From Candidatus Poribacteria bacterium (lineage in GTDB: Bacteria > Poribacteria > WGA-4E > PCPOR2b), in the NCBI GenBank assembly GCA_965218095.1, contig OZ244587.1, positions 2,816,001-2,880,000 of the forward strand: 64,000 bases of DNA, given 5' to 3'. Both the position numbers and the translations under genes were made by a program. Below are positions 42,129 to 50,824 of this stretch, piece by piece. The notes beneath the pieces were generated by a model. The model was not told where the DNA came from. It saw nothing but the letters and a program-made list of their open reading frames with translations, and made no database searches. The stretch's first letter is position 1. Every line of letters starts with the position of its first letter.

Positions 42129-43010
42129 ATGGGACACAAGTATTCCGTAATTCTTTGCACCCTGGCTGGGAGCGGAGGCGACGTTTGGGAGAAACCGCGT
42201 GAGGTGCTTGAGACGATTGCCGGTGCGGGTTATGATGCCGTTGACATGGATGCAGAGCCGGACAAAATAGACCCACGGCGGTTCAAGGAAGTCACAGACA
42301 TCGCCTTCTCCCTTGGTCTGAAAATACCAGCACTCATCGGTGCCTGGGCCACTTGGCACGCCGGAGAAGGCAGAGACCTGGCATCGAGCGACGATTCAGT
42401 ACGAAGCCATGCCGTAAACTATGCCAAAAAGTGCATTAATCTGGCTGCCAGTTTTGATGAACCACCCCTATTTGAAATTGTCCCCTGTCCTGTTCAACCG
42501 GAGTACCCGGTTTCCAGTGTGCCACGCGACATCCTCAGGCACAACTTCATGAAAGCTGCCACAGAGATTGTCGCATACGCCGGGGATAGAAACGTCTCCG
42601 TGGCAATCGAGCCCGTCAACAGGTTTGAGGCCCATGCGGGCTTCTTAAATAGCATCGAGGAGGCCATGAGCATCGTCGAAGAGATCGGCGCAAAAAACCT
42701 GGGTGTGCTCGCCGACTTCTTCCATGTCAATATCGAAGATGCGGCGCTCACTGATGCGTTGAGGCTGGCGGGCAGTCGGCTGATGCACATCCACTTGGCC
42801 GATAGCAACAGACAGGCGCCCGGCACCGGGCATATTGATTTTTTACAGGTGATTCGAGTGCTGAACGCCATCAATTTTACGGGCTACATGTCCCTCGACA
42901 GCGTGCCGGCCAAACCGGATTGGAAAACATTAGTAGAGGAATCCATCCGCTTCATGAAGCAGATGGAGCAGACAGCAGCGTTGCAGCAGAGCATCGCCGA
43001 GATGCACTAA
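42129..43010 (+). CDS. Sugar phosphate isomerase/epimerase (tagatose 3-epimerase-like TIM barrel)
   Basis: IEPVNRFE, DFFHVNIE, HIHLADSNR..PGTGHIDF. Confidence 0.9.
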   Translation: MGHKYSVILCTLAGSGGDVWEKPREVLETIAGAGYDAVDMDAEPDKIDPRRFKEVTDIAFSLGLKIPALIGAWATWHAGEGRDLASSDDSVRSHAVNYAKKCINLAASFDEPPLFEIVPCPVQPEYPVSSVPRDILRHNFMKAATEIVAYAGDRNVSVAIEPVNRFEAHAGFLNSIEEAMSIVEEIGAKNLGVLADFFHVNIEDAALTDALRLAGSRLMHIHLADSNRQAPGTGHIDFLQVIRVLNAINFTGYMSLDSVPAKPDWKTLVEESIRFMKQMEQTAALQQSIAEMH

Positions 43011-43057
43011 TACCGATCTAGGATTGAAATTCCGATAATGAGCGAAAGGAGGATTTT

Positions 43058-43627
43058 ATGATGTTGCGTTTGCTACTGGTGGTTTTGCTTCTCGTTATAA
43101 GTGTGACCTTGGCGGGCGCACCGCAGGCTGACAAGCCGCCGAATGCACTGCCAGATTTAACGCCGCGGGTGGCTGAACCGAAAGCCGAGCCGAAATTCCG
43201 TGTTGAGATGGTAACAGATGATGATGAGGTCGATTTAGATGCAGCGAGCTACATCAAGCGGGAATTACGCAGTTTGGGGGATGTAGAAATCGTTTATGAG
43301 GGGGCAGAGTGGAAATTGCAAGTTCTAGCTAACGAGGATAAAACGAAAAGTGGTCGTAAAATAGGATATTCCATAGCAGTTGCCTTTACAAGGCGTATAC
43401 GCGATAGCTACCCTAATGTGTTTGACTATAATGAGTTACGAAAGTTACTATCTACCGATGTCGTATTTGATTTTGTAGAAATAAGTGTTAGTTATGAGTT
43501 TCAGTCCCTTTACCTCGGGGGTGGGGGTACTGCTGAATTGGACTTAATATGTAAGAATCTTGTCACCACGTTTGATATAAAGCATCTTGAACCAGAGCGT
43601 AAGAAGCGTGTTGAAAATGTCCGCTAA
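43058..43627 (+). CDS. Secreted hypothetical protein (putative cassette gene)
   Basis: AAGGAGG RBS, signal peptide; its TAA stop is the end of the left arm of the 43620 palindrome. Confidence 0.75.
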   Translation: MMLRLLLVVLLLVISVTLAGAPQADKPPNALPDLTPRVAEPKAEPKFRVEMVTDDDEVDLDAASYIKRELRSLGDVEIVYEGAEWKLQVLANEDKTKSGRKIGYSIAVAFTRRIRDSYPNVFDYNELRKLLSTDVVFDFVEISVSYEFQSLYLGGGGTAELDLICKNLVTTFDIKHLEPERKKRVENVR

Positions 43628-43641
43628 GGGTCGTTATCGGA
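43620..43641. repeat. dif-like palindromic site
   Basis: TCCGCTAA-GGGTCG-TTATCGGA with AATG/CATT extension. Confidence 0.75.
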
Positions 43642-43813
43642 CATTAAGGAGGATATTGTGAAAAGGATAAAGGCAATTGGACACTTGTTGTTTAGTTTTC
43701 TTGGGCGCATATCGCGCTGTGAGCGTGTTTAGTGAACCCTCGTTGTCACCGTAACTGTTTTTGAGGCTCAATCTTAACCCACCCCTGTGTAAAATTCATT
43801 GGAGGAAAACGCT

Positions 43814-44317
43814 ATGAGATTCTTTTTTTGTGTGATTGTGATATTGTTGTTGATTGTTGGTTGTGAAAGTTCCGAACAAGTGAATGAGATGGCACCTGAG
43901 CCAGAAGCGAGTGACATGGCACCGGAGCCTACCCCTGAAAATAACTGGGTGGTTGAGTTTATTAAGCCTGAGTGTTGGGCGGCTGTCCCGTCCAATGTGG
44001 ATTGGGAATTGATTGCAACGCTCCAGCGGAATCCGTTAAAGCCCGGAGCGTTTTATATTTTTCCAGAACAAAAGGAAGCAATCAACGTTGCGTACCGTGA
44101 AGGGAAGCATTTCATCTTTGAAATAGGGCGTGAGTACAAAGAAGATTTAGGCTCTAAGATCCGGCACTACATTATACAACCAGAGATACCTTACCAAGAT
44201 AAAGATAAAAATCCTTTGCTGTTGCATTACGAGAAGGAAGGAGGTTTCAAGGACGAGCATCACAGATACTTCTTTATTTCAGTTGGTTGGTACGCATCTT
44301 TGAGGAAGGATCTATGA
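43814..44317 (+). CDS. Hypothetical lipoprotein (putative cassette gene)
   Basis: GGAGG RBS, lipobox LIVGC, MAPEP repeat. Confidence 0.75.
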   Translation: MRFFFCVIVILLLIVGCESSEQVNEMAPEPEASDMAPEPTPENNWVVEFIKPECWAAVPSNVDWELIATLQRNPLKPGAFYIFPEQKEAINVAYREGKHFIFEIGREYKEDLGSKIRHYIIQPEIPYQDKDKNPLLLHYEKEGGFKDEHHRYFFISVGWYASLRKDL

Positions 44318-44362
44318 TGATGGAGATATATGGAATACCCCAGAGGTAGGCTTGGTTGACCA

Positions 44363-44384
44363 TCCTAAAAGCGGTGTTATCGGA
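44363..44384. repeat. dif-like palindromic site (degenerate left arm)
   Basis: TCCTAAAA-GCGGTG-TTATCGGA. Confidence 0.65.
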
Positions 44385-44458
44385 CAGGGAAATAGTTTCA
44401 TCGAGGAATGGGTGCGGTTGTATATTTATGTTAGTCGTGATTAGAAAGGAGAGATTTG

Positions 44459-44818
44459 ATGCCAAAGAAGAAAACTGGCGAATTGACAGTGGTTCATACG
44501 TTTGCTATTAAGCCGTCGCAGTTGAAGGAAATTAGACAAGCGGCATTTGATAGAGATATGTCTATCTCGAAGTATATTTGTAATGCGCTTCGGTACTATC
44601 AGACGGGTTTGATTCTTTTGACTGATGCGGCAAATCTATCGTTTGTGTTAGGGACATTGAAATATATGCCTCGCTATCCTTTAGACGATGTGAGAGTGGG
44701 CGATTTTGTCCTTTATGCGTCTGATGCCCCACTGGAGGCAGACGTAACCCATGCGGCGTTGGTTCAGGGTGTTCAACGGGTAGGCGATAATTTCCGTCAG
44801 CAGATAATTTCTCGTTGA
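44459..44818 (+). CDS. Ribbon-helix-helix-like DNA-binding domain protein
   Basis: AAGGAG RBS; HTFAIKPSQLKEIRQAAFDRDMSISKYICNAL fits the CopG/RHH pattern. Confidence 0.55.
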   Translation: MPKKKTGELTVVHTFAIKPSQLKEIRQAAFDRDMSISKYICNALRYYQTGLILLTDAANLSFVLGTLKYMPRYPLDDVRVGDFVLYASDAPLEADVTHAALVQGVQRVGDNFRQQIISR

Positions 44819-44892
44819 TATCCATTGCTAAAAAATGTGACAGAATTGTAGGTGGTGAAACCGTCTCAATAAAGCGTTTTTATTGAGAAACC

Positions 44893-45067
44893 ATGCGCTT
44901 GACCTCTCGGAACGGAACGGTCGTCAAGGACATATTAACGCTTGATTTTTTGTATTGCGAAGTTGCATGAGGAATCTCTGAAGTCGAACAAGTCCGTGTC
45001 AAAGATTATTCGTGAAGGGCTGGATCTCTATTTTGAAAGAGAAAGGAAGCGCCGGGTATTGCGGTAA
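44893..45067 (+). pseudogene. Frameshifted small RHH protein
   Basis: MRLTSRNGTVVKDILTLDF, then after a T6 run IAKLHEESLKSNKSVSKIIREGLDLYF in another frame. Confidence 0.45.
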
Positions 45068-45192
45068 TACCCGACGGCTTCCGGATGCTATTTGCGAGTT
45101 GCAGCGGGTGGTGTCGGTGCGTATTCCGACGGCTACTCTATTATTCTACAACACTTTCGGCTTTGGTGTCAACCCCAAAACTACTAATAATG

Positions 45193-45214
45193 TTCGGCAA
45201 TAAACATTGTCGGG
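45193..45214. repeat. dif-like palindromic site (degenerate)
   Basis: TTCGGCAA-TAAACA-TTGTCGGG with AATG/CGTT flanks. Confidence 0.5.
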
Positions 45215-45289
45215 CGTTCTTAATTGTGCTAAAATTATGGTAGAAAAGTTTTTGGTGGAGGTTGTTTACTGGTCGCAGGATTGGCGTTA

Positions 45290-45311
45290 TCCTTTAATAC
45301 GCATTATCGGA
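45290..45311. repeat. dif-like palindromic site
   Basis: TCCTTTAA-TACGCA-TTATCGGA. Confidence 0.65.
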
Positions 45312-45495
45312 CATATTCCTGTATCTAACCGCTTGTGCCAAGGTATCAAGGCATAATCGAAAGACAGACGCTCGCCTTACCAGAGCCAAAGCCCAAACGA
45401 CGCTTTTTCCGATGGTTGTAGCCCTCACTATGCGCGGACGCAAGCCCTTTGTGATGAGTGGTTCGTGGACATTGCGGACCGAGAGTCCAAGGATA

Positions 45496-45517
45496 TCCGG
45501 TAACAGGTCTTATCGGA
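45496..45517. repeat. dif-like palindromic site
   Basis: TCCGGTAA-CAGGTC-TTATCGGA with ATA/TAT extension. Confidence 0.75.
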
Positions 45518-45552
45518 TATTTTTCTGATATAAATATAGGAGAAATTCTATT

Positions 45553-46124
45553 ATGAGCAACAGAATCATGACAGGCAAAAATAGCGAACTCAAAAAAGTT
45601 GTCGCGTACACAGACGGAGCTTGTAGCGGCAATCCGGGACCTGGTGGCTACGGAGTTGTCCTTCTATACGACAAACATGAACAAGAGCTATCCGAGGGGT
45701 TTCGGTTAACAACCAATAGTCGCATGGAAATGTGGGCTGCTATAGCTGCACTAGAAGCCCTCAAACCCCAGAAGTGTGCAGTAACAATATACTCGGATTC
45801 AGAATTCTTGGTTAATAGTGTATCACAGGGCTGGGTGTATAAATGGAAAGAAAATGGTTGGAAAAACAAAAATATCAAAAATAAGGAGGTTCCGAATACC
45901 GACTTATGGATGCTACTATTAGAATTGTGTGAACAACATTGCTACTATTAGAATTGTGTGAACAACATGAAGTTAAGTTCGTGTGGGTGAAAGGTCATGA
46001 TGGCAATCCCGGTAATGAGCGTGCGAATCAATTATCAAAGAAAGCGTTAGATCGAGAAAATTTAGGCATTGATAAAATCTATGAAGCAGAGAAAGTTCAA
46101 ATGCCTCAGCCGACTTTGTTTTAA
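45553..46124 (+). pseudogene. rnhA: Ribonuclease HI split by a 29-bp tandem duplication
   Basis: YTDGACSGNPGPGG, TTNSRME, YSDS, PNTDLW, WVKGH..NPGNERA; perfect duplication 45911-45939/45940-45968. Confidence 0.9.
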
Positions 46125-46210
46125 TCTGCGTAATACAGCTTATGGCAGTTGGCATTCTTTCGCGAGGGAGAAGAGTGTATGGCGTACCTGTCAACTGCCG
46201 CCAAAAATAG

Positions 46211-46232
46211 TCCGATAAATGCCATTATCGGA
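46211..46232. repeat. dif-like palindromic site (perfect arms)
   Basis: TCCGATAA-ATGCCA-TTATCGGA. Confidence 0.8.
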
Positions 46233-46259
46233 CAACCTTCCAAAAAGGAGGGATAGACC

Positions 46260-46550
46260 ATGAACCAAAAAACCCTTTTGATAGCCATAGCGACCTTGAT
46301 AGTGGCAATCTTTGCCTTTGCTCAAGTCTACATCATTTTCACAGTTACAACTATCAATGACCGAATCAATAGCGTGGACCAACGGCTAACACACCTTGAG
46401 ACCCGCTTTGATAAGCGATTTACGGCTATTGACCAACGTTTTACAGACCTTGAAACCCGCTTTGATAAGCGATTTGATCTCATTGAAACCCGGCTCGATG
46501 CGCTCAACCAGAACTATATTGATCACCTAGCACACCATATCAAGAAATGA
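46260..46550 (+). CDS. Small membrane-anchored coiled-coil protein
   Basis: AAGGAGG RBS, N-terminal TM, internal DQR.T.LETRFDKRF repeat (54-nt period). Confidence 0.75.
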   Translation: MNQKTLLIAIATLIVAIFAFAQVYIIFTVTTINDRINSVDQRLTHLETRFDKRFTAIDQRFTDLETRFDKRFDLIETRLDALNQNYIDHLAHHIKK

Positions 46551-46642
46551 GTAAGTTGAACCAAAACCACAAGGGAGATATACGTCCCCACGACCCTTTG
46601 TGGCGAAACTTCAAAAGAGGGGGATTTGACAGGAGGCCATTT

Positions 46643-46915
46643 ATGTTTTTGCGTGTTGACGGAGGAGATTATGAAAATGTGATCAATTTAGATAACGTTG
46701 TTAATATCGCAACTCGTTTAGTATCCGAGGGCAACTGTTCCATTCAGGTTTTTATGGTGGATGGTCAGGAATTCACAATTTTCAATAGCGATGAAAAGCG
46801 GTGTATGGCGGTTACTGAGGCGCTTTGGGAATTTATTTTTAATGCTACTCAAGGAGGACCTTCGATAAGCCTAAGCTCTCTTATTAACAAGGCTATCATG
46901 AAAAATATCCGATAA
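46643..46915 (+). CDS. Small hypothetical protein
   Basis: AGGAGG RBS at ~46631; INLDNVVNI motif; TAA stop is the end of the left arm of the 46908 palindrome. Confidence 0.65.
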   Translation: MFLRVDGGDYENVINLDNVVNIATRLVSEGNCSIQVFMVDGQEFTIFNSDEKRCMAVTEALWEFIFNATQGGPSISLSSLINKAIMKNIR

Positions 46916-46930
46916 TGAGATGTTATCGGA
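46908..46930. repeat. dif-like palindromic site (perfect arms, 7-bp spacer)
   Basis: TCCGATAA-TGAGATG-TTATCGGA with AATA/TATT extension. Confidence 0.75.
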
Positions 46931-47351
46931 TATTCATTCGATCAATAGTAAAATAAACCCCTGTCAACCGCTGAGCTAACAAAAAGCGAAGTGTCCGATA
47001 GGATCGGCGAAGATACTGTTATGGTAGGGTTTTGACGATGTACCTTTTTGAAAATCGCCCTTTTCAACTTGAACAACAACACGAAAATAGACATCTGACA
47101 GAAAGCAATGCTCCCAATAGAAACCGATAAATTAGTCCTATCGCTCCTACAGAGCTAGACAATGTAACGGAAGACCGCTATCTATAGACATTTCGACCCT
47201 ACGGGTCAAAAATCTACCCCTATTAGGGAGATATAGAGGGGGGCTTATCAACCGTGCCAAACGGGAAAAAGCAAACCTAAGAACCAGTATAAGAGTGAGG
47301 GGGGAAGTCTTGGTCGGATGGATATGATGTGGGCTCTTTGGTGTTTCAACC

Positions 47352-47754: not shown

Positions 47755-47840
47755 CTCTGATGGTCCACTATCAACGGGGGATTCGCTGATCCTGAAGCCT
47801 AGGTGTGACAATGAGAATTTTGTCAAATAAAATCGACGTC

Positions 47841-50824
47841 ATGAAGCAATTCTGCTGGATTTTCGCCTTATGTGCTGTATCGGGCGTCACAATTTTCGGC
47901 GTGATTGCACAAAGAAGCCCCGCTCAGTCTAATGAAAATACCCACCCACTTGTGCGAGATGTTCGCATTATTCCTGCGCCCATCACGGAATCAGTCAATT
48001 CCCAGGAGAAGTTGACGATATCGACGCCCCATACATCCAGAGATTGGCAGTCCATTATCAAATCCGTAGGCATCCAACCCGATTCGGAAAAATGTGTCGA
48101 TTGTCACTTCGAGGGACAATCCCCGACACAAGTACATCCGGGAAACCATCTGCGCCTCCATTCCCCTGATATATTTGGCTGTATCCTTTGCCATGGTGGG
48201 GATGCGCAAGCCACCGAGACGCAAGCAGCGCATTCCTCTGCGAAGGCATTTCCCTTCATGAGGGGACGCCAAATTGAAGCGAATTGTGGCAAATGCCATA
48301 CCGAGCCTACGGTGCCGGGTGCGCATTCGCTCTCCGGTGGACGATTTGTCCTCAATAGATACGGCTGCGTGACCTGTCACGACCTGCCCATAGAAATTCC
48401 GGCCGCACGATATGCCCCCCGTCTTGATTATATTGGCAATAAAGTCACCAGGGAATGGCTGGGGGATTGGCTTGAAGATCCAACGGTTTATCTTCCGAAA
48501 TCGAAGATGCCCAAAATTGAGGGAGTGCACGCGAGTGAGCGTGACGCAATTATCGAATTTCTTCTGACCTTACGGAATGATGCGCTATTCCAACCGATTG
48601 CTGGGAAAGGAAACGCCGGAAATGGAGAGAAGCTCTTCACCGCGGAAGAATGTCAATCGTGTCATGCCGTACAAGGCGTCGGTGACAAGATTGGTCCCGC
48701 ACTGGATCGGGTTGGGGAGAAGGTGAACCGCTTGTGGCTCATGAACTACCTCCGAAATCCGGCAAAGTTCCATCCAAACACGAAGATGCCGGAGTACGAG
48801 TTTTCAGATCAAGCGATCTTGGATCTCACCGAGTATTTACTGACGCATGTTTCCGATGGGGTAACCGTTTTGGAAAAATTTCCAGATGTTTCGCCCAACC
48901 CGACTAAAGCCTGTGAAGGGTTCAAGCTGTACATCAATAAGGGGTGCGCCCAGTGCCACGGGATTACGAAATATATGAAGGTGAACATCACCGAGCAGAT
49001 CCGGAAAACAGAGATTCACGAAGTGATTGAGCGGATTCAGACACATCGGGGGAGGGGGGCCAAAGTCCCAGAAATCGATATTCCAGCATCGGATCTGGAA
49101 TTGATGAAGAGCGCCCTTTTAGCGATACAACAAAATGACATCTATAAAGATCTCTCATACAATTTGGCGGAAGGCACGTTGGGAAACCCAAATCGATTTT
49201 TAGAATCGTTCTGGCAGTTTCCAATAACCCCCCAAGGTGAGCCGCCAGATTATTACAATGAAACGGTCGCGAAACTTTCACCGGAGTCATGTGGAAGTTG
49301 TCACATCAAACAGTGGGAGGACTGGAAAACAACCCGTCATGCAATGGCGATGGGGCCTGGGGTTTGGGGCGGGTTAATCGGGGCCGCGCCCGATTTCGTC
49401 GAGAGTTGCTCGGAATATCACGTGCCATTGTCCGAACAACACGAATATTTGCCAGCGTCAGATGGAGGATACGCTGAAAATCAACAGTATGACGCACAAC
49501 TCCAATCGCACGGGATTACCTGTGCCGCCTGCCACCTTCGAGGACATCAACGCTTTGGGCCTTCTTTCTCGGAAACCGCGGCAGCGGCAAGTATCTTCGG
49601 TGAGGGACATCATGGGGGAGCAGTTGTGAGTCGTGCGTATCAGGATTCGGCTTTCTGCAAATCGTGTCACCAATTCGAGGAGGGTGAGGCGAGTCTGAAC
49701 GGGAAACTTCTGGAAAACACATACAACGAATGGCTCCAAAGCCCCCATGCCAAAAACGGTGAAACCTGTCAGTCGTGTCACATGCCAGGGCGCCAACATC
49801 GGTTTCGAGGCATTCATGACCCCGAAATCGTACGAAAAGCCGTAAAATTGAGTGTTCAGATGAAAAATCAGCGGGAAAGGATCGAAGCCGAGATTCAGTT
49901 GACGAATGAGGGAGCAGGTCATCACTTACCGACATACGCGGCGCCGGCGATTTTTGTCACTGTGCGACTGCTGGATTCGGCTGGAAATCCCATCCCCAGA
50001 ACAAAGCAGGTGCGGGCGATTCAACGCCGGGTGCCTTCAAGCCAGGACCGAGAAATATTCGATACTCGCATCCCCGCCGGAGGAACTTGGATCTATGATT
50101 ATAAAATCTCCCGTCCTGAACGCGCCGAAACCCTTGAGCTCTGGATTGATGTGCATCCGGACCATTTTTACAACGGATTTTTCAAGGCATACCGCGCCAA
50201 TAGGGCAGCACAACCGTACATTGATAAAGCCCTTGAGAGCATTAAACAGAGCCCGTACCTGTTGCTGACGAAGCACATCCCCTTGGATGTTTCTTCATCT
50301 CAAGAGACTGCAACCCAATCTCTTGAAACAGCAGAAAGCTATAACAATCTAGGGGTTGCCTACCAAAAGCGGGGGGAGTTGGAGGAGGCGATCGGAGCGT
50401 TCAAAACGGCGATCAGTATTGACCCGAACCTGGCAGAAGCACATGTCAATTTGGGGAATGGCTATGGCATGCAAGGCAGGCTCGACGATGCCCTTGTAGC
50501 GTTTAAGGAGGCAATTCGCATCGACCCAAACCTCGCGGGGGTGTATAGCATCTGGGACATATCTACGGTATGCAAGGCCGGCTTGATGAAGCCATTGTCC
50601 AGTATAAGAAGGGGATTGCTATCAACCCTGACTATACAACAGCACATTATAATCTTGCCTGTGCCTATTCTCTCAAAAATGAGAAGACTTTAGCTATAGA
50701 AACCCTTCAGAAAGCCATAACGCTAGATCAGAAATACATTGAAATCTCCAAAACGGATAGCGATTTTGATAATATCCGTGAGAGTCGAGAGTTTCAGCAG
50801 CTTATCAACTCAGTTGAACATTAG
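47841..50824 (+). CDS. Multiheme c-type cytochrome with C-terminal TPR repeats; frameshift near 50550
   Basis: Signal peptide, ten CxxCH motifs plus degenerate CSEYH; TPRs (YNNLG, HVNLG, HYNLAC) continue in ORF 50570-50824. Confidence 0.85.

Follow-up and report, generated by a model that had tools for sequence, protein, structure and literature searches.

The 64,000-nucleotide stretch analysed here (the window: positions 2,816,001-2,880,000 of G000, a Candidatus Poribacteria genome assembled as a single contig of 6.35 Mb) contains an array of short dif-like palindromes with small, co-oriented genes between them, and this array is probably a chromosomal island of dif-type modules moved by the host's own Xer recombinase. 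The array occupies G000 2,859,031-2,862,930, about 153 kb from dnaA. Three results carry this reading, namely that the palindromes are far above chance, that their arms are those of a site linked to the only xer gene of the lineage, and that cassettes bounded by such sites recur between genera at higher identity than xer itself. Genomes of the order are cited below by G numbers, loci fetched from them by L numbers and two genera as g1 and g4, and F1, F2, F5, F6 and F18 denote families from an all-against-all comparison of open reading frames (ORFs).

An initial annotation, made from the letters alone, had picked out six sites at 43620, 44363, 45290, 45496, 46211 and 46908, and all of them are present at those coordinates (Table 1). 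Arms were scored over 8 + 8 positions (maximum 16/16), with the reversed-arm motif as control; the right arm is invariant in the six sites (8/8), the left arm varies (6-8/8) and no two spacers are alike, just as had been described. The strict motif TCCGATAA-N6/7-TTATCGGA, where N6 and N7 stand for spacers of six and seven nucleotides, is matched at 46211 (N6) and 46908 (N7), with 0 expected in 100 shuffles, and TCCNNNAA-N6-TTATCGGA is matched with zero mismatches on the + strand at 43620, 44363, 45290, 45496 and 46211. In its relaxed form this second motif has 12 matches in the window against 2.13 expected, a number reached by no shuffle, and beyond the array there are only two matches, each with two mismatches (20861 and 31165), which bears out the statement that the full motif does not occur elsewhere in the window. 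The right arm TTATCGGA is itself enriched (10 copies against 2.27 expected, with a maximum of 7 in shuffles), and nine of the 10 copies fall within 43031-46930. Genome-wide, 21 sites score at least 14/16 against one for the control, and six of the 21 lie inside the 3.3 kb of the array. The extended consensus, (A/G)T(A/G)TCCGATAA-N6-TTATCGGA(C/T)AT, has an 11-6-11 geometry, as in dif. The three asymmetric sites of the window all point in the same direction, every ORF of the array is on the + strand, and the AT-rich character claimed for the cassettes is evident in a GC content of 0.42-0.45 over 43001-47000 against 0.54-0.61 just upstream. The array sites are therefore real and far above chance, and the credible extra sites in the window number five, spread across 3.3 kb.

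What these sites copy can be read from the surroundings of xer. The sole full-length Xer-type tyrosine recombinase of G000 (301 amino acids (aa); 860,652-861,557, minus strand), which the genome holds together with a 52-aa fragment, is preceded, 114 bp upstream of its start, by a perfect palindrome of this kind, at 861,672 and some 2 Mb from the array. Among the 27 Poribacteria loci fetched through the Xer protein (L080-L106), 26 have the sequence ATGTCCGATAA-N6-TTATCGGACAT about 113 bp upstream of xer, perfect in 25 of them and with a single mismatch in one; it is missing upstream of xer in G019, where a half-site close to the xer start (discussed below) is retained. The spacer of this palindrome is conserved within a genus. 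The relaxed motif was found in 36 of 41 genomes of the order, mostly as one perfect copy per genome, with reversed-pattern controls at about zero, and in the five complete relatives the Xer protein has a single match in each genome while the distance between the xer-linked site and dnaA is 48.0-51.3% of the chromosome (5/5). Because the motif is linked to xer, lies half a genome from dnaA in the complete relatives and belongs to genomes with one Xer each, its sequence context identifies it as the chromosomal dif of a single-recombinase Xer system, and dif and Xer of Poribacteria are here defined operationally for the first time. The protein scores similarly on the XerC, XerD and archaeal XerA models, below every curated cut-off, weakly on XerS, and at 86.6 bits against a 265-bit cut-off on the integron-integrase model. 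The window has no tyrosine recombinase by PF00589. The geometry of tyrosine recombinase sites that the initial annotation had recognised in the array is thus that of the lineage's own xer-linked dif, arm for arm, and the XerC/D-like recombinase that it had supposed to be encoded elsewhere finds its counterpart in the Xer of G000 860652-861557, which has exactly this sequence as its linked site. As a side observation on the dnaA reference point, a second, shorter gene with a DnaA domain is found in G000 (2218852) and in each of the five relatives searched.

Evidence that such sites delimit mobile units comes from relatives of G000, where site clusters recur around accessory and defence genes across the order (G003, G007, G013, G016, G018, G069 and G071), answering the proposal that clustering be sought in the genome and its relatives. 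A HigBA cassette that follows a perfect site at G000 5,433,020 has 89% DNA identity over 833 nt to a cassette of G009, a member of another genus; the alignment starts one base before the site and ends 7 nt past the HigA stop, G009 has a second site 13 nt past the alignment end, and the spacers of the HigBA sites differ between the two genomes. The F2 cassette of the window has 87% DNA identity among G000, G009 and G016, with different neighbours in each, and its homology runs from the site (46211 in the window) to the stop codon; the G009 and G016 copies of that site are decayed, and G009 has an extra full site 14 nt upstream of the decayed one. The back-to-back full and decayed sites before F2 in G009 (L078 3780-3835) could be an empty position or the scar of a cassette loss. 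A complementary case is offered by G013 and G009, which have the flanking gene F18 in common: homology picks up again 24 nt ahead of the site, runs across it and stops 3 nt past it, after which G013 has three other genes and G009 has HigBA, a site and F2. Since the cassettes are 87-89% identical and the xer genes of G000 and four g4 genomes only 73.6-76.3%, the cassettes are best read as having moved between genera after the genera split. As for the variation in cassette content and order that the initial annotation had asked to see at the sites, HigBA, F2 and the G013/G009 flank do break there, and a comparison of G018 with G016 breaks elsewhere; content between sites is not invariant, homology does not as a rule ignore the sites, and the motif is not confined to single copies upstream of conserved genes.

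Other site-bounded modules fit the same picture. A type III restriction-modification system of G000 lies between two perfect sites 5.5 kb apart, and a search with this module for a third shared cassette returned only paralogues (65-77% identity). Type III restriction-modification genes are very abundant in the order, with at least six mod-like paralogous segments within 13 kb of G019 (2840946-2854054). The two-gene anti-phage system PD-T4-4/PDC-M47 lies between inverted sites at G000 1161192-1163650 (L018 5193-7651); the pair adjoins an HTH gene and a Cre-like recombinase, and in G003 (L170) this recombinase is present too (92% protein identity), together with a site whose degenerate arm and spacer are identical, GTTGATAA-GTTCTC-TTATCGGA. 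The arrays of relatives contain HicAB-like and ParA-like genes and many small unassigned ones, judged by ORF reading only. Sites are also found at gene 3′ ends, some multi-gene modules lie between inverted pairs of them, and G018 has one direct pair of sites with an identical spacer. Beside these, G019 (L140 4337-8824) and G021 (L141 4065-8190) have at the same locus a module of about 4.1-4.4 kb, with two large genes between two perfect sites. The spacer of one site is the reverse complement of the other (GAACAA/TTGTTC), which makes the sites an inverted pair, as in a dif module of Acinetobacter or a segment able to invert, and the two species differ in one of the two inner genes.

In the explanation favoured here, the single housekeeping Xer (301 aa) would bind the TCCGATAA/TTATCGGA arms and would insert circular modules, or exchange modules, through crossover within the 6-bp spacers. 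Each module would begin with a right arm and end with a left arm, and this would account both for the stop codons within left arms and for the ribosome-binding sites (RBS) 16-35 nt after right arms. The packing of the window is of this kind: start codons stand 16, 35 and 27 nt from right arms, with an RBS in between, and the two ORFs said to end with their TAA in a left arm do so, the TAA being the last three bases of the arm (43625-43627 and 46913-46915). That exchange is by Xer rather than by another enzyme, and in this manner, we infer from the sites themselves; Xer would be the economical candidate because the array shares its arms with the xer-linked dif and this Xer is present in every genome. 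A fuller version, which we offer tentatively as one possibility, would describe a gene-capture system running on the housekeeping Xer, in which promoterless, co-oriented, one-site cassettes are stacked at hot spots, many of them with a common translational leader, a perfect-armed N7 site unable to recombine with 6-bp sites closes the arrays, and Xer binding near the RBS tunes expression. The lack of promoters in this version is deduced from spacing only.

Several observations weigh against the reading of the array as a Xer-moved island. Exchange of dif modules in Acinetobacter needs identical or nearly identical spacers (accessible part of PMC13141974), and the window spacers all differ. Most of the cargo in the window is broken, and the right border of its F2 cassette (46571) has no site, the leader beginning there instead. 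The gene order F5-F1-F6 is kept in five genomes, and at the one hot spot compared between G018 and G016 homology breaks off at points other than sites. One of the six sites, at 44363, is probably a fortuitous match that originates in coding sequence, as argued below. The xer-linked site of G000 itself lies only 29% of the chromosome from dnaA (861,672 against 2,705,850), which may reflect a rearrangement or a fault of assembly; the terminus of G000 could not be placed clearly from GC skew or ORF-orientation skew, both of which were noisy, cumulative GC skew being weak with a minimum near 2.52 Mb. Left arms in the window are degenerate, its spacers are all different and three of its genes are broken, so that the window array is probably old and inactive. 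No recombination product or circle junction between sites was listed in the four sequencing runs that cover the stretch, all of which are available as assembled contigs, in which circles and rare deletions cannot show.

The same contigs give a little more at the edges of the island. Run X6 carries a different organism code, and its strain is about 98% identical on the left flank. One X6 contig stops matching at 43033, in the half-site, and continues with 81 letters that match nothing here, and other X6 contigs begin to match at 47141, in the eroded site, with unlike sequence before; both observations are weak, and the coincidence of these match ends with the half-site and the eroded site at the two island ends is a weak hint. 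Joints from 45521 to 46244 (X4) and from 45523 to 46244 (X6) would drop the RNase H cassette. They were rejected, their short sides being 29 and 23 nt and the depth of the X4 joint far above the local depth, and they are probably due to another organism's paralogous locus. No conclusion follows from the uncovered parts in X3, X4 and X6. Run X2 is the best holder of the stretch (share 0.94) and may be the sample behind the window assembly.

It could instead be that the sites are operators bound by Xer, or other protein-binding or structural palindromes, that regulate their neighbours without any movement of genes, the accessory genes simply sharing a regulatory module. The half-site ATGTCCGATAA lies 13-15 nt before the xer start in 27/27 loci (at about 1476-1490 of L080-L106), overlapping a GGAG RBS, which suggests autoregulation by Xer; given this half-site, the arm may also, or instead, be a protein-binding operator, which is a further point against the island reading. 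The right arms of the array likewise abut the RBS of the next gene, and the half-site at 43031 in the window has the geometry of the xer half-site. Yet an operator would be carried along with flank of varying length, and what is seen in G013 and G009 is flank homology that ends 3 nt past the site, after which content differs; in two cassettes (HigBA and F2) the homology between genera starts exactly at a site, and sites also stand at gene 3′ ends and in inverted pairs around multi-gene modules. Regulation and recombination are compatible in any event, and as an explanation that excludes movement we regard the operator as unlikely.

We regard as quite unlikely the proposal that the repeats are short patches of identity for homologous or illegitimate recombination, or fossil scars of dif-integrated elements relocated by rearrangement, with no site-specific mechanism at work here. 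It would sit well with the decayed cargo, the degenerate left arms and the different spacers, with breakpoints between relatives that are not all at sites, and with a G000 dif that is not opposite dnaA, which suggests rearrangements or assembly problems. However, homologous recombination would not be efficient on arms as short as 8-11 bp, arrays with perfect arms kept occur at many loci in many genomes, and 87-89% identity implies recent transfer between genera.

A dedicated enzyme other than Xer would leave the array as a decayed integron-like platform whose integrase was lost, and the multi-copy Cre-like tyrosine recombinases of these genomes are the candidates. In G000, 13 nt separate the end of a truncated Cre-like gene from the perfect site at 5427486, a full copy lies 1.7 kb from the site at 1163629, and remnants adjoin arrays in G023 and G069. 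The segment that follows the terminal N7 sites of four g4 genomes, about 90 nt ending in a half-site, resembles the region upstream of xer. Against this, nine of 10 loci around such genes in five relatives have no site of at least 13/16, and the tenth is an orthologue of the G000 element, with a site of 5/8 + 8/8; of 21 matches in the five relatives, one looked near a site when positions were compared by eye; the intact G000 genes do not have the N7 and half-site arrangement; and the window has no tyrosine recombinase gene, its array arms being identical to the xer-linked dif. The Cre-like genes, recognised by a GHSLRVG motif, were accordingly rejected as the general enzyme of the arrays, the sites being mostly missing beside them, and the possibility of a dedicated enzyme appears very improbable. 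Eight of the 10 Cre-like loci share an upstream region of their own, which is different, and these genes are treated here as parts of separate mobile elements that are sometimes found at dif-like sites. An occurrence of TTATCGGA inside the Cre-like coding sequence (codons K-L-S-E) accounts for some lone half-sites. Among viral contigs the 18-base palindrome core occurs in six, about the chance number by a rough estimate, and none of the six has a close relative of the Poribacteria Xer; in two of them, with a GC content of 62-63%, a Cre-like gene (29-33% identity) lies no more than about 1 kb from the site.

Having weighed these alternatives, we return to the window array, read as a Xer-moved island, and to its individual features (Table 1).

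Table 1. Features of the array in window coordinates, from left to right, with N7 sites of relatives in the last row (coordinates of the named loci)
Feature	Position	Strand	Remarks
Half-site TCCGATAA, perfect left arm	43031..43038	+	Upstream island edge; start codon of first cassette 19 nt on, AGGAGG RBS between
Cassette A, 189-aa protein with hydrophobic N-terminus	43058..43627	+	TAA stop is the end of the next left arm
dif-like site 1, TCCGCTAA-GGGTCG-TTATCGGA, arms 7/8 + 8/8	43620..43641	+	
Three-gene module F5-F1-F6, decayed	43658..44818	+	
F5, cut to 24 codons	43658-43732	+	
F1 lipoprotein, frameshifted	43814-44317	+	Last 33 codons readable in another frame to 44444
F6, intact	44459-44818	+	
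Apparent site TCCTAAAA-GCGGTG-TTATCGGA, arms 6/8 + 8/8	44363..44384	+	Inside out-of-frame tail of F1 pseudogene
dif-like site 3, TCCTTTAA-TACGCA-TTATCGGA, arms 6/8 + 8/8	45290..45311	+	
184-bp gene-poor stretch between two sites, without convincing gene	45312..45495	.	
dif-like site 4, TCCGGTAA-CAGGTC-TTATCGGA, arms 7/8 + 8/8	45496..45517	+	
RNase HI domain gene, split	45553..46124	+	Sole copy in G000
dif-like site 5, perfect palindrome TCCGATAA-ATGCCA-TTATCGGA	46211..46232	.	
Cassette F2, 96-aa protein, N-terminal membrane helix and coiled-coil repeat	46260..46550	+	
Conserved leader, ~75 nt, core ...CCCTTTGTGGCGAAACTTCAAAAGAGGGGGATTTGACAGGAGG	46563..46642	+	Ends directly before ATG 46643
90-aa ORF, no family match	46643..46915	+	Behind leader; TAA stop is the end of the last left arm
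Last site, perfect arms, 7-bp spacer, TCCGATAA-TGAGATG-TTATCGGA	46908..46930	.	
Orphan CRISPR-leader-like stretch	46961..47113	+	88% identity over 153 bp
Eroded site ACCGATAA-ATTAGTC-CTATCGCT, 12/16, 7-bp spacer	47123..47145	+	Possible old island boundary
N7 sites	Window 46908-46930; L143 9055-9077; L159 7762-7784; L079 2746-2768; L162 2332-2354; L160 7588-7610		

At the upstream edge, the half-site at 43031 stands to the first cassette as the xer half-site stands to xer in 27/27 Poribacteria loci. The protein of cassette A has no match in Pfam, NCBIfam or PADLOC. The cassettes had been described as single genes, and this does not hold for F5-F1-F6, which is one three-gene module with identical gene order in G013, G017, G022 and G023; a site homologous to site 1 precedes the same module in G013, G017 and G023, and in G022 the nearest site is about 630 nt upstream, with a separate ORF between. 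The apparent site inside this module, at 44363, has a right arm that corresponds to the codons V-I-G. Because the homologous codons of relatives read GTAATTGGACGC (or TTAGCAGGGCGC) and F1 and F6 have no intergenic gap there, the match is counted as a probable product of coding sequence. Of the four half, eroded or degenerate copies that had been listed in addition, the perfect half-site at 43031 stands and that at 47123 is a possible eroded site, but the other two are not sites: the supposed degenerate copy at 45193 scores 11/16, and even a threshold of 12/16 gives 400 matches in the genome against 212 for the control, which is chance-like, and the one at 46994 belongs to the 153-bp stretch resembling a CRISPR leader and is not dif-like. 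The label ribbon-helix-helix (RHH) that had been attached to two small proteins is backed by no Pfam family.

Of the remaining cargo, the stretch 45312..45495 has no match among 151 genomes of the order and may be an empty or eroded cassette. The RNase HI gene is split into ORFs of 132 and 61 aa by a perfect 29-bp tandem duplication (45911-45968), which is also present in an X2 contig that spans 45733-46013 with zero differences, an observation that is not independent if X2 is the source sample. The window gene corresponds to the first 171 residues of a 358-aa gene in genus g4, whose neighbours do not change between the two g4 genomes examined, with no adjoining sites.

The sites with 7-bp spacers are found at the downstream end of the array in five of the six arrays examined; five of these N7 sites have perfect arms, and that of L143 scores 8/7. 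Their spacers form two groups of similar sequences, T(G/A)A(G/A)(A/G)TG and TTAC(A/G)CC. Downstream of the terminal N7 site, four g4 genomes share a conserved stretch of about 90 nt with a half-site at its end (AAAAATATGTCCGATAAC in three and diverged in L162), and in G069 this segment is followed by the remnant of a Cre-like recombinase N-terminus.

The leader that precedes the 90-aa ORF deserves separate mention. It is a conserved sequence of about 75 nt, with the core ACCTCCCCACGCCTCCCTTGTGGCGAAACTTCAAAAGATGGGGATTTGAAAGGAG followed by about 7 nt and then ATG, and it stands directly upstream of unrelated genes. It occurs in 18 of 29 genomes of the family, in genera g1 and g4 only, and further copies in G000 lie at 5434212-5434285 and 2540694-2540723. 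From 28 of 30 fetched loci 34 copies were collected, 30 of them with a dif-like site within the same 3-kb locus. The leader is not in a constant reading frame with the ATG, so that it is conserved at the nucleotide level. The leader has two CCUCC-like and two GGAG-like runs and no Rfam match, and a structured RNA was considered and rejected: a 13-bp hairpin folds in single copies, but its 5′ strand varies without compensation. In one sequencing run its depth reaches 379, and diverse sequences follow its end at 46635.

Downstream of the last site, 46961-47113 resembles the leader between cas2 and a CRISPR array with 37-bp repeats elsewhere in G000 (4784080-4784232). No CRISPR repeats follow it in the window, and stretches related to it occur in five genomes of other genera (G002, G008, G032, G049 and G051). 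Farther on, a 962-aa multihaem-cytochrome/TPR protein (47805-50693) has eight full-length matches (seven in relatives and one in a second G000 copy), and 8/8 have one in-frame stop (TAA in five, TGA in three), which may be a gene boundary before the TPR part.

The flanks offer little for comparison. The host genus consists of one genome, which makes a strain-level comparison of the array flanks impossible, and the flanking isomerase and cytochrome genes are adjacent in 0 of 24 relatives, with an identity of only about 55-70%. A metagenome search with the isomerase gave 15 loci at 33-82% identity, none of them from a close relative, and no site was found in the 14 that were scanned (the 33% match, L158, was left out). 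A search for tRNAs found none. In Rfam no family rose above threshold, the sole match at E <=1 being a Streptococcus small RNA model with 27.6 bits against a 48-bit cut-off.

Set against known systems, the array invites comparison with integrons first. Sedentary chromosomal integrons and integrase-less clusters of attC sites consist of co-oriented, compact and mostly promoterless cassettes with one site each, frequently with toxin-antitoxin cargo. The Poribacteria arrays are like them in having co-oriented, compact cassettes with one site per cassette, in an array without an adjacent integrase. They differ from integrons in their sites, which are simple double-strand-type sites of 22-28 bp identical to dif, and in that no attI or Pc platform was identified. 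An integron proper was rejected on the absence of IntI (no PF00589 match in the window, and a Xer at 86.6 against 265 bits) and of long imperfect hairpins of attC type. The initial annotation was right that the sites are not attC-like, since the printed sequences have no RYYYAAC/GTTRRRY ends; the R/L box consensus was not searched separately.

The closest relatives of the system are the dif (pdif) modules of Acinetobacter, genes bounded by copies of the chromosomal dif on plasmids, for which chromosomal "dif module islands" were described in 2026 (PMC12907356, PMC13141974); here and below, comparisons draw on the accessible parts of the cited reports. Shared features are 28-bp sites (11-6-11) that copy the host dif, linear arrays of several modules and the lack of a linked dedicated recombinase (PMC13141974, PMC12907356), as well as toxin-antitoxin and accessory cargo and the appearance of the same module in different contexts with boundaries at the sites. 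The differences are mechanistic. Acinetobacter sites have distinct XerC and XerD arms, whereas Poribacteria have one Xer and palindromic arms, both arms being the same sequence; Acinetobacter sites alternate between C/D and D/C orientation, whereas the asymmetric sites of the window are co-oriented, inverted pairs existing elsewhere in the order; and the Poribacteria cassettes are tightly packed with no room for a promoter. The Poribacteria modules are moreover chromosomal, in an uncultured phylum of sponge symbionts, and no spacer in the window matches another. The proposal of a new integron-like system therefore does not hold as to kind, since modules bounded by dif-like sites, chromosomal islands included, have already been described in Acinetobacter (PMC13141974, PMC12907356). 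Taken as a whole, the first interpretation keeps its core, that is, dif sites, a Xer encoded elsewhere and recurring cassettes, and loses the general single-gene claim, two minor site copies and the novelty of kind; no recombination event was observed, and most of the cargo is decayed.

Integrative mobile elements exploiting Xer (IMEX), such as CTXphi and TLCphi, integrate through the host Xer at the chromosomal dif in the terminus (PMC9226527, PMC6744903). The resemblance lies in foreign DNA that makes use of the host Xer, with a good dif-like site on one side and a degenerate one on the other, and the differences in location and scale: some 153 kb separate the array from dnaA and 2 Mb from the xer-linked dif, and its units are single genes or small modules rather than phages or islands. 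A stack of dif-integrated elements was rejected as an explanation because the array is not at dif. The XerS/difSL and XerH/difH systems also have a single Xer whose gene is linked to dif (PMC2731167, PMC2965235), as Poribacteria have one xer per genome, linked to dif. Unlike the sites of those systems, however, the Poribacteria dif is a perfect palindrome, and extra dif copies bounding cassettes did not come up for XerS or XerH in the accessible parts of those reports. A literature search, outside whose reach subscription journals lay, found nothing on Xer, dif or cassette arrays in Poribacteria, and no work on dif modules outside Acinetobacter except for IMEX.

Work on modules bounded by dif-like sites has been almost confined to Acinetobacter, where they are regarded as a route for antibiotic-resistance genes, and a lineage-wide version in an uncultured phylum of sponge symbionts would show that the hijacking of chromosome-dimer resolution for gene shuffling is a general strategy. 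The Poribacteria version combines a single Xer, a palindromic dif and integron-like packing with a cargo of restriction-modification, toxin-antitoxin and other anti-phage genes, and it has a bearing on a possible origin of integrons from Xer-type systems. With a 28-bp site defined and a 301-aa recombinase to hand, it can be tested directly in vitro. The main interest of the system lies in its breadth across the order and in its mechanistic differences from the Acinetobacter modules, the window array being probably an old and decaying example.

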